A DNA stretch of 64,000 nucleotides from sequence record PV067732.1; one strand, 5' to 3'. This DNA is from Acinetobacter phage vB_AbaS-Bhz15. This document shows, one piece after another, positions 18,918 to 18,993 of the stretch. The translations under genes and the position numbers were made by a program. The notes beneath the pieces were generated by a model. It saw nothing but the letters and a program-made list of their open reading frames with translations, was not told where the DNA came from and searched no databases. How positions within the stretch are numbered: the stretch's first letter is position 1; each line of letters begins with the position of its first letter.

Positions 18918-18948
18918 GTTTACAACTGTATTTTTTGATGTTATAATG
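18918..18948 (+). promoter_or_regulatory. early promoter GTTTACA-N17-TATAAT (extended -10 TGTTATAAT) upstream of rnh, overlapping 56-bp repeat copy A
   Basis: Consensus sigma70/T4-early architecture. The -10 is the first part of the repeat. Confidence 0.6.
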
Positions 18949-18993
18949 GTTCTACGGTTCACCGCTCTAAATTTATCTATTTGGTCGGAGAAG
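18938..18993 (+). repeat. 56-bp exact repeat copy A (ATGTTATAATGGTTCTACGGTTCACCGCTCTAAATTTATCTATTTGGTCGGAGAAG)
   Basis: Identical 56-mer to positions 50354..50409. Spans the -10 element and about 45 nt of predicted leader. Confidence 0.9.

Follow-up and report, generated by a model that had tools for sequence, protein, structure and literature searches.

The genome of Acinetobacter phage vB_AbaS-Bhz15 (PV067732.1) raises the question of why a phage should carry one and the same 56-bp sequence, ATGTTATAATGGTTCTACGGTTCACCGCTCTAAATTTATCTATTTGGTCGGAGAAG, at two intergenic sites. In the 64,000-nucleotide stretch of this genome that we analyzed (the window), the two copies, here called A and B, are identical and lie on the same strand; there is no further match with three or fewer mismatches elsewhere in the window, and there was none in 100 shuffles. 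A sequence-only reading of this DNA had described the repeat as a promoter −10 element with about 45 nt of leader, shared by two sites 31 kb apart, and had proposed a function beyond the −10 hexamer. Both sites are real, although two is an incomplete count: each genome has five copies of a composite element of ~150 to 250 bp, of which the 56-mer forms the core. Its retention at five syntenic sites in three phage lineages, together with the concerted evolution of its core, supports a constraint on the repeat that reaches beyond the −10 hexamer, and we propose below that the five elements may be replication origins.

The window derives from a T4-like Acinetobacter myovirus of the Hadassahvirus type, with ~99.8% identity to AbTZA1 and, at the two repeat loci, 99.3 to 99.9% identity to Maestro, Morttis, and AB-Navy71. 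A 76-nt query around copy A matched 51 Acinetobacter phage records, the Lazarusvirus group included, at five or six places in each, and finding the same element at the same sites in 51 independently deposited genomes excludes mis-assembly, which the sequence-only reading had named as a possible source of the repeat. For copies of the element we compared the rest of AbTZA1 (its whole genome being treated as a composite that includes the window), the whole genomes of Lazarus and AB1I1M-1, and pieces of Kimel from IMG/VR. Genes flanking the element in the Lazarusvirus group are only ~80% identical to those of the window, and AB1I1M-1 is a more distant relative, with 68% identity at the gp25 locus. 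Exactly five slots, in the same relative orientation, are occupied in AbTZA1/window, in Lazarus/Kimel, and in AB1I1M-1 (Table 1), across lineages whose flanking genes diverge by 20 to 32%. Three of the five AbTZA1 copies fall outside the window, and three slots adjoin core structural or replication genes (gp34/rnh, gp25, and gp3/gp2). The gaps between neighboring slots are similar in length in all three genomes; this even spacing is hard to square with a position-independent role and points to a role that is genome-wide and exerted at the DNA level.

The ZZ1 genome, the next relative, has an unrelated, single-copy intergenic sequence in the gp25 slot, and the element family therefore does not extend to Zedzedvirus. 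A scan of IMG/VR for more relatives re-found only AbTZA1 and Kimel, and a metagenome scan with the promoter 18-mer returned 11 loci, all unrelated, and added no relatives. No description of the repeat family was found in the literature searched, and the Maestro/AB-Navy genome paper makes no mention of these repeats.

Read 5′ to 3′, the element sometimes opens with a hairpin that has a MotA box as its 3′ arm; a MotA box with a 14-nt spacer, or in copy A a sigma70 −35 with a 17-nt spacer, then leads to a TG-extended TATAAT. The −10 region AAAATTTTGATGTTATAAT precedes GGTTCTAC, which surrounds the start site, and is followed by a lineage-specific C-rich block of ~15 nt (block 1), an A/T-only run of 13 to 15 nt, a second conserved block CGGAnAAG(n)ATAG (block 2), and variable modules consisting of two GC-rich inverted repeats and/or short 9-nt tandem repeats. 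The stretch AAAATTTTGATGTTATAAT plus GGTTCTAC is a generic promoter/start-site consensus of these phages, present at other promoters too, and the element-specific part starts at the predicted +1, the A of TAC (A18954 in copy A and A50370 in copy B), which we deduced from the position of the −10. Block 1 is (C)GGTTCACCGCTCTAA in Hadassah/Lazarus versus CCCCTACCCTTCCAA in AB1I1M-1 (also written CGGTTCACCGCTCT and CCCCTACCCTTCC, respectively); block 2 is CGGAGAAGATAG or CCGGAAAAGAATAGG. Every copy has its A/T-only 13- to 15-mer at ~+16 to +30, and an A+T-rich repeat region is present in B and C as well.

Upstream, a MotA box TGCTTTA occupies −33 to −27 in copies B, D, and E and is degenerate (GTGCTATC) in C. 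Copy A has instead the −35 that the sequence-only reading had predicted, and we found no sigma70 −35 at copy B. Palindromes that end in the MotA box, such as GTAAAGCACgcgTGCTTTAC of Lazarus D, are clear in AbTZA1 E and in copies D and E of Lazarus/Kimel, weaker in B, and not evident in the AB1I1M-1 copies; a divergent promoter arising from the left arm of the palindrome was considered and rejected, as no usable −10 is seen by eye at the right distance. The similarity of copies A and B reaches 5 nt further upstream with two mismatches (repeat family D3, 61 nt) and breaks off abruptly downstream, at 18994 and 50410.

Downstream of the core, copies B and C have in common ATAGAGTTTCwGATGATwTAGATGTAT followed by a variable number of 9-nt TAGATGnnn repeats, and copies D and E (and C further down) have two GC-rich inverted repeats, the arrangement of which is kept while the sequence depends on the lineage (GCTGCGCAGC plus CGGCGC-n4-GCGCCG versus GCAGCttGCTGC plus TCGAGCttGCTCGA). 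The motifs TAGATGT and TGATATATC are only mildly enriched near the elements and are present elsewhere too. Copies A, B, and E run into open reading frames (ORFs), the first gene beginning ~110 to 130 nt past the predicted start site in A and B. By its sequence, rnh has a candidate promoter of its own between copy A and its ATG, and so may not depend on copy A. Copies C and D lie antisense to their neighbors, have neither ORF nor ribosome-binding site, and meet a terminator-like hairpin with a T-run within their own intergenic gaps, giving predicted RNAs of ~133 to 135 nt; at least two of the five promoters are thus predicted to express no protein.

Within a genome, the five paralogs average 84 to 90% identity over +1 to +45, whereas orthologs in Hadassah or Lazarus and AB1I1M-1 share 61 to 62%. 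In the flanks the relation is reversed, with 54 to 68% identity between orthologs and 52 to 57% between paralogs. Kimel D and Kimel E are identical over ~100 nt whereas Lazarus D differs from Lazarus E, and so conversion is ongoing between copies 32 kb apart. The recorded hosts in all three lineages are A. baumannii (one Lazarusvirus record gives A. pittii), which excludes a host factor as the reason why block 1 differs by lineage. Block 1 either co-evolves with a partner that the phage encodes, or is homogenized by conversion, its letters mattering more for their sameness than for their identity.

The sixth match in Maestro adds no new site, being a head-to-tail duplicate of a 59-nt unit (TGATGTTATAAT...GGAGAAG) inside slot C (Maestro 80201 to 80319), next to an inserted mobC-like homing-endonuclease gene. 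This duplication marks the boundaries of the promoter-plus-leader unit, at ~−17 and ~+42.

Table 1. Features in the window, the five element slots, and slot spacing. Positions are those of the window unless another phage is named; P is the probability that five random points on a circle have a smallest gap at least as large, for a pattern noticed post hoc.
Feature	Position, location, or gaps	Strand or direction	Details
motA homologue	6645-7256	+	Identity to annotated Lazarus proteins 78% and 92% (motA/asiA)
asiA homologue	7274-7546	+	Identity as in motA row; trans factors required by MotA-box (middle-mode) promoters
gp34 (long tail fiber, proximal)	14949-18826	-	Divergent from copy A; two ORFs, 18089-18826 and 14949-18092
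Copy A promoter	18919-18947	+	Sigma70 (early) type; -35 TTTACA 18919-18924, 17-nt spacer, TG-extended -10 TATAAT 18942-18947; 11/12 consensus matches
Copy A, 56-nt repeat	18938-18993	+	Block 1 ACGGTTCACCGCTCTAA 18954-18970; A/T-only run 18968-18982; block 2 GGTCGGAGAAG 18983-18993
GC-rich inverted repeat ACTGC-TGC-GCAGT	18998-19010	+	Downstream of copy A; related to GCTGCGCAGC palindrome of copies D and E
Separate candidate MotA-box promoter for rnh	19029-19053	+	TGCTTCA, usual 12-nt spacer, TACAAT; between copy A and rnh ATG
rnh (RNase H)	19083-20152	+	Gene downstream of copy A; ATG at 19083, copy A 90 nt upstream
gp25 (baseplate wedge)	49895-50293	+	Directly upstream of copy B
Copy B promoter	50337-50363	+	MotA box TGCTTTA 50337-50343, 14-nt spacer, TG-extended -10 TATAAT 50358-50363
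Copy B, 56-nt repeat	50354-50409	+	Identical to copy A
Copy B downstream module	50410-50478	+	ATAGAGTTTCTGATGATTTAGATGTAT common to copy C; A+T-rich 9-nt TAGATGnnn repeats, then ribosome-binding site of next gene
UvsY.-2-like ORF (DUF2685), 55 aa	50479-50646	+	Pfam PF10886, E 4.4e-23; first gene 3′ of copy B
Homing-endonuclease gene near slot, window	51750-52541	-	
Homing-endonuclease gene near slot, Maestro	80410-81078		
Homing-endonuclease genes near slots, Lazarus	45769-46875, 80628-81278, 116277-117071		
Slot A	gp34/rnh gap	Toward rnh	
Slot B	gp25/uvsY.-2 gap	Sense	
Slot C	gp3/gp2 gap	Antisense to both genes	
Slot D	srd/tk.4 gap	Antisense to both genes	
Slot E	Within insertion splitting DNA polymerase gp43 into 43A and 43B	Sense	
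AbTZA1 gaps (kb)	36.2, 29.7, 31.9, 38.3, 32.1		P 1.9e-4
Lazarus gaps (kb)	31.8, 31.7, 38.8, 30.8, 32.05		P 2.1e-5
AB1I1M-1 gaps (kb)	34.9, 31.3, 39.5, 30.7, 32.0		P 6.1e-5

What role would require five such sites? Because the sites are fixed and evenly spaced, the antisense orphan copies end at terminators, copy B sits in the slot of T4 oriF, and motA and asiA are present, we favor the explanation that the elements serve as replication origins primed by transcription (R-loop type), akin to T4 oriF and oriG, with an additional sequence-specific component; we hold it tentatively, at somewhat less than even odds. We infer that host RNA polymerase, together with MotA/AsiA at the MotA-box copies, would start a transcript at the predicted site in each element, and that this transcript would stay hybridized as an R-loop to the easily melted DNA just downstream. 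RNase H would trim the RNA, the 3′ end of which would prime leading-strand synthesis, and the lineage-specific core may be read by a phage-encoded partner, a sequence requirement that T4 origins do not have.

The T4 comparison is closest for copy B. The T4 GenBank record puts oriF at 115321, in the interval from gene 25 to uvsY, and names the uvsY transcript as its primer; copy B has the same slot and direction, after gene 25 and ahead of the uvsY cluster. T4 oriG is at 152947, inside gene 34, antisense to it and directed toward rnh; copy A, in the 34/rnh gap, points the same way and lies ~2 kb away in map terms. The record also places oriA at 16763 and oriE at 79355, antisense in gene 5 and ~3 kb in map terms from slot C, although in the opposite direction. 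Five T4 origins (A, C, E, F, and G) are active early; oriF and oriG span ~100 bp and combine a MotA promoter with a downstream A+T-rich unwinding element and a persistent R-loop, oriE uses an early promoter, and E, F, and G lie at strand-switch regions (PMC3016281). The elements resemble oriF and oriG in promoter type (middle-mode, with a MotA box and a −10, in phages that have motA and asiA). T4 origins are roughly 20 to 45 kb apart, three of them at strand switches, as are element copies A, B, and C, and some T4 origin transcripts run antisense to late genes without a coding purpose, which recalls the orphan copies. GC skew lends weak support: on the top strand of the unidirectionally transcribed early region, the largest upward step falls at, or within ~2 kb of, slot D in Lazarus and AB1I1M-1, and the step at slot E is above the median in every comparison (55th to 94th percentile).

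Several observations weigh against origins. T4 origins share "little homology," have no motif, and require no specific sequence (PMC3016281), whereas the elements have a strictly conserved, lineage-specific initial transcript of ~45 nt that is without precedent in T4 origins and is equally compatible with an RNA or protein recognition site; apart from promoter motifs, the T4 oriF and oriG sequences have nothing in common with the core. A further departure from T4 oriF/oriG is the 14-nt spacing between the element MotA box and the −10; candidate middle promoters elsewhere in these genomes have 11 to 13 nt. At +45 to +75, the stretch expected to hold the unwinding element and A+T-rich in T4, copies D and E carry GC-rich hairpins. 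The "late" direction in which C and D fire is shared by none of the four origins that the T4 record annotates, and slots D and E lack a clear T4 counterpart. The spacing pattern was noticed post hoc, and the three syntenic genomes count as one observation, their lineages not being independent; the GC-skew signal is small and may reflect gene content; and function is read from sequence throughout. The apparent iterons of T4 oriE were considered as relatives of the element and set aside, as they reflect the gene 5 coding sequence, which has a 24-nt periodicity, and are unrelated.

A T4-like clade without the UvsX/UvsY pair would be notable by itself. With T4 UvsX and UvsY as queries, tblastn found no homologue in any of the three lineages (AbTZA1 composite, Lazarus, and AB1I1M-1), and the gp41 control was found at ~60% identity. 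In T4, uvsX lies between gene 40 and b-gt, where Lazarus has genes annotated as glucosyltransferases; UvsW, gp46/47, gp49, gp32, and gp59 are present, and a DprA-like protein is annotated in Lazarus. Having no homologue of UvsX and UvsY would imply a greater dependence on origin firing, although this is a weak argument. It is possible, if on the doubtful side, that this clade evolved five evenly spaced, sequence-defined origins, each a promoter plus a ~45-nt "address" that is read by a phage factor and was rewritten in concert as the lineages diverged. If so, the clade would provide both a consensus origin sequence and an origin-specificity code for the first time in the T4 superfamily, in which the choice of replication start sites is still unsettled and the rules of origin R-loop formation in T4 are an open question.

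The conserved first 45 nt could instead act as RNA. Five promoters would then yield a multicopy regulatory RNA with an identical 5′ end, carried by ~135-nt small RNAs at C and D and by messenger RNA (mRNA) leaders at A, B, and E, with the 5′ block as a seed or protein-binding tag; we regard this, the main rival, as unlikely. Element-specific conservation does begin at the predicted +1 and span the first 45 nt of RNA, and copies C and D, with their own promoter and a terminator-like hairpin and T-run inside the intergenic gap, resemble Hfq-type small RNAs in layout (single-stranded 5′ end, A/U-rich stretch, hairpins, and terminator). That phages sharing a single host species, A. baumannii, have lineage-specific cores suggests a phage partner evolving with the core, and one 4-bp helix, CUCU/GGAG to UUCC/GGAA, shows a single compensatory change. 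Yet RNAalifold on 13 distinct copies gave no consensus secondary structure over +1 to +62, and folding the leader, as the sequence-only reading had suggested, produced little: the predicted 56-mer hairpin does not surpass its shuffles (z = −0.28) and is broken in Lazarus variants, and the advantage of the full-length C and D RNAs over shuffles is modest (z = −1.9 and −1.5). Rfam matches are at chance level, and the three phage genomes contain no complementary site of at least 10 nt, only random 9-mers (host targets were not searched). A trans-acting RNA by itself needs no fixed, even spacing or conserved orientation, although in a circularly permuted genome the spacing would be explained if it ensured that some copy is transcribed early whichever end is injected first. 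Paralogous small-RNA families with a common 5′ seed, such as Qrr1-5 and OmrA/B, consist of dispersed genes that have their own promoters and an identical 5′ end and diverge downstream. The elements are like them in the shared 5′ end, the separate promoters, and the terminators of C and D, but differ in having no conserved fold, target, or Rfam match, in that three of five copies are mRNA leaders, and in their conserved, evenly spaced positions, which such families do not require. Lambda nut and rrn boxA are short conserved RNA motifs just downstream of early promoters, and the CGCUCUAAA in the Hadassah/Lazarus core resembles boxA (GCUCUUUA); we rejected this idea, as the motif is missing from the AB1I1M-1 core despite the same host species. 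There is also no conserved boxB-like hairpin, and two copies have nothing downstream to antiterminate. Mimicry of the 16S 3′ end was likewise rejected, the CCUCC core not being kept.

Two further explanations assign the repeat no role of its own beyond recombination or promoter activity, and we consider both less likely because the placement is fixed, evenly spaced, and syntenic and includes orphan copies. The sequence-only reading had likened the repeat to the promoter-plus-stem-loop cassettes of T4-type phages (PeSLs and PmSLs, a terminator hairpin plus a promoter; Arbiol et al. 2010, PMC2839356; Comeau et al. 2014, PMC4122927). The repeat would then be mainly a portable patch of homology for recombination and module exchange, a role proposed for RB49/phi1, T4/PST, and KVP40/nt-1. 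Part of this likeness stands: both are repeated intergenic promoter modules of T4-like genomes, some with an upstream stem-loop and with recombination between copies; several element copies have a hairpin or palindrome whose 3′ arm is a MotA box just upstream of the −10 (as in GTAAAGCACgcgTGCTTTAC), which is the PmSL layout (PMC4122927); ectopic gene conversion is evident (Kimel D equals E, and paralogs are closer than orthologs); and the 59-nt unit is tandemly duplicated in Maestro beside a homing-endonuclease gene. The features that define PeSLs are nevertheless missing. PeSLs are numerous, lie in hyperplastic regions and at breakpoints of indels or replacements, and conserve only the stem-loop, the −35/−10, and ribosome-binding-site motifs (PMC2839356, PMC4122927). 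The elements number five rather than dozens, are evenly spaced with three beside core genes, keep all slots and orientations across lineages 20 to 32% diverged in flanking genes, and have their conserved part 3′ of the −10, outside the stem-loop and −35; C and D lack a gene and a ribosome-binding site and end at terminators. A cassette for module exchange therefore seems to us improbable. We find it equally improbable that the elements are nothing more than five strong promoters of recent common origin, homogenized by gene conversion and functioning only to start transcription. The conversion is real, and the part of the repeat given by TGTTATAATGGTTCTAC is a generic promoter/start-site consensus found at other promoters, but two orphan antisense promoters with their own terminators have been retained in three lineages, the transcribed 45 nt are the most conserved part, between flanks diverged to background, the gp25 slot of ZZ1 holds single-copy sequence, and the even spacing is left unexplained.

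A translated short ORF is very improbable indeed. Both window copies begin with ATG, and the sequence-only reading had pointed to a shared 16-aa peptide, MVLRFTALNLSIWSEK; that peptide fails, since a 1-nt indel (ACGG versus ACCGG) splits copies A to C from D and E within one genome, and the core is replaced in AB1I1M-1. The ACCGG insertion form, which shifts the frame, is found in copies D and E of AbTZA1 and in all Lazarus copies. The ATG of the 56-mer moreover precedes the predicted transcription start, and no ribosome-binding site accompanies it. As for minigenes or leader peptides like lambda bar (ATG-ATA-TAG, MYLIY...), the 9-nt repeats do read TAG-ATG-NNN in frame (window 50420 to 50445; Lazarus 79690 to 79740 and 149150 to 149185), and examples such as ATG ATT TAG ATG TAT TAG in copy B, or ATG ATA TAG repeated, resemble the two-codon bar minigenes (ATG ATA TAA). 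The frame of the downstream mini-ORF is, however, not kept in every copy (AbTZA1 copy C has one extra nucleotide), and the repeat number differs between close relatives, Lazarus A having one unit more than Kimel A.

We also asked, following a comparison that the sequence-only reading had suggested, whether gene order breaks at the elements in related phages. The slots are identical in the three lineages, with local plasticity at Maestro slot C, and a recombinant genome is informative here. DLP3 (PQ034586.1), classified as a Lazarusvirus, has a Hadassahvirus-like segment of at least 21 kb that runs from nrdA to asiA and includes the tail-fiber genes, rnh, and element A. It is Hadassah-like from 140 kb or less to ~161.1 kb and Lazarus-like beyond; the right joint, the only one located, is in motA/asiA, at about window 7000 to 7300, and the left joint lies between 118.7 and 140 kb. 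Elements A and B of DLP3 have both flanks of a single parental type, with no joint within ~350 nt. In the one case examined, DLP3, the element is not a breakpoint marker, which also speaks against the cassette.

How T4-type phages choose their replication start sites can be tested directly on this 60-nt unit, which comes in natural variants: cores specific to each of three lineages, a tandem duplication, and copies that have or lack the GC hairpins. If they are not origins, they would represent a five-copy phage RNA with conserved genome placement that has not been described, which would likewise be new. With its even spacing and concerted evolution, the family also offers a clear viral case of ectopic gene conversion acting under selection. 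The phages concerned (Maestro, AB-Navy, AC4, AbTZA1, and PhT2 relatives) include isolates used or proposed for A. baumannii therapy, and an understanding of how their replication is controlled is of practical value.

Mobile genes lie near several slots. The gene 43 halves lie at 165973 to 167481 and 1035 to 2207 in AbTZA1, at 44537 to 45709 and 48689 to 50197 in Lazarus, and at 63397 to 64569 and 67582 to 69090 in AB1I1M-1, and the insertion between them (1.7 to 3 kb) holds copy E, small ORFs that match PHROG families only, and, in Lazarus, an HNH endonuclease gene. Homing-endonuclease genes (HNH, mobC-like, and Seg-like) are found ~0 to 2 kb from slots B, C, and E in one genome or another. 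Repair of the double-strand breaks that such endonucleases make could be what drives conversion among the copies and keeps them similar, or else the endonuclease genes may benefit from the strong promoters of the elements. The AB1I1M-1 record (OQ627712.1, "circular") contains ~91 to 99 nt of element A at both 1 to 91 and 168339 to 168437, a short terminal duplication that probably comes from an assembly closed on the repeat.

The divergent neighbor of copy A, gp34, is split in the window into ORFs of 245 aa and 1047 aa that overlap by ATGA at 18089 to 18092. DLP3 gp34 (~95 to 100% identical) is a single 1292-aa ORF, from which the window differs by a 1-nt indel; two gp34 coding sequences are annotated in AbTZA1 and Maestro as well, and the split is a sequencing error common to several records, a real frameshift, or a recoding site. 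Within the gp34 coding region, at 16506 to 17228 (minus strand), a 33-nt direct repeat occurs four times and a 54-nt repeat twice (families D1, D6, and D17); they presumably encode repeated structural units of the tail fiber.

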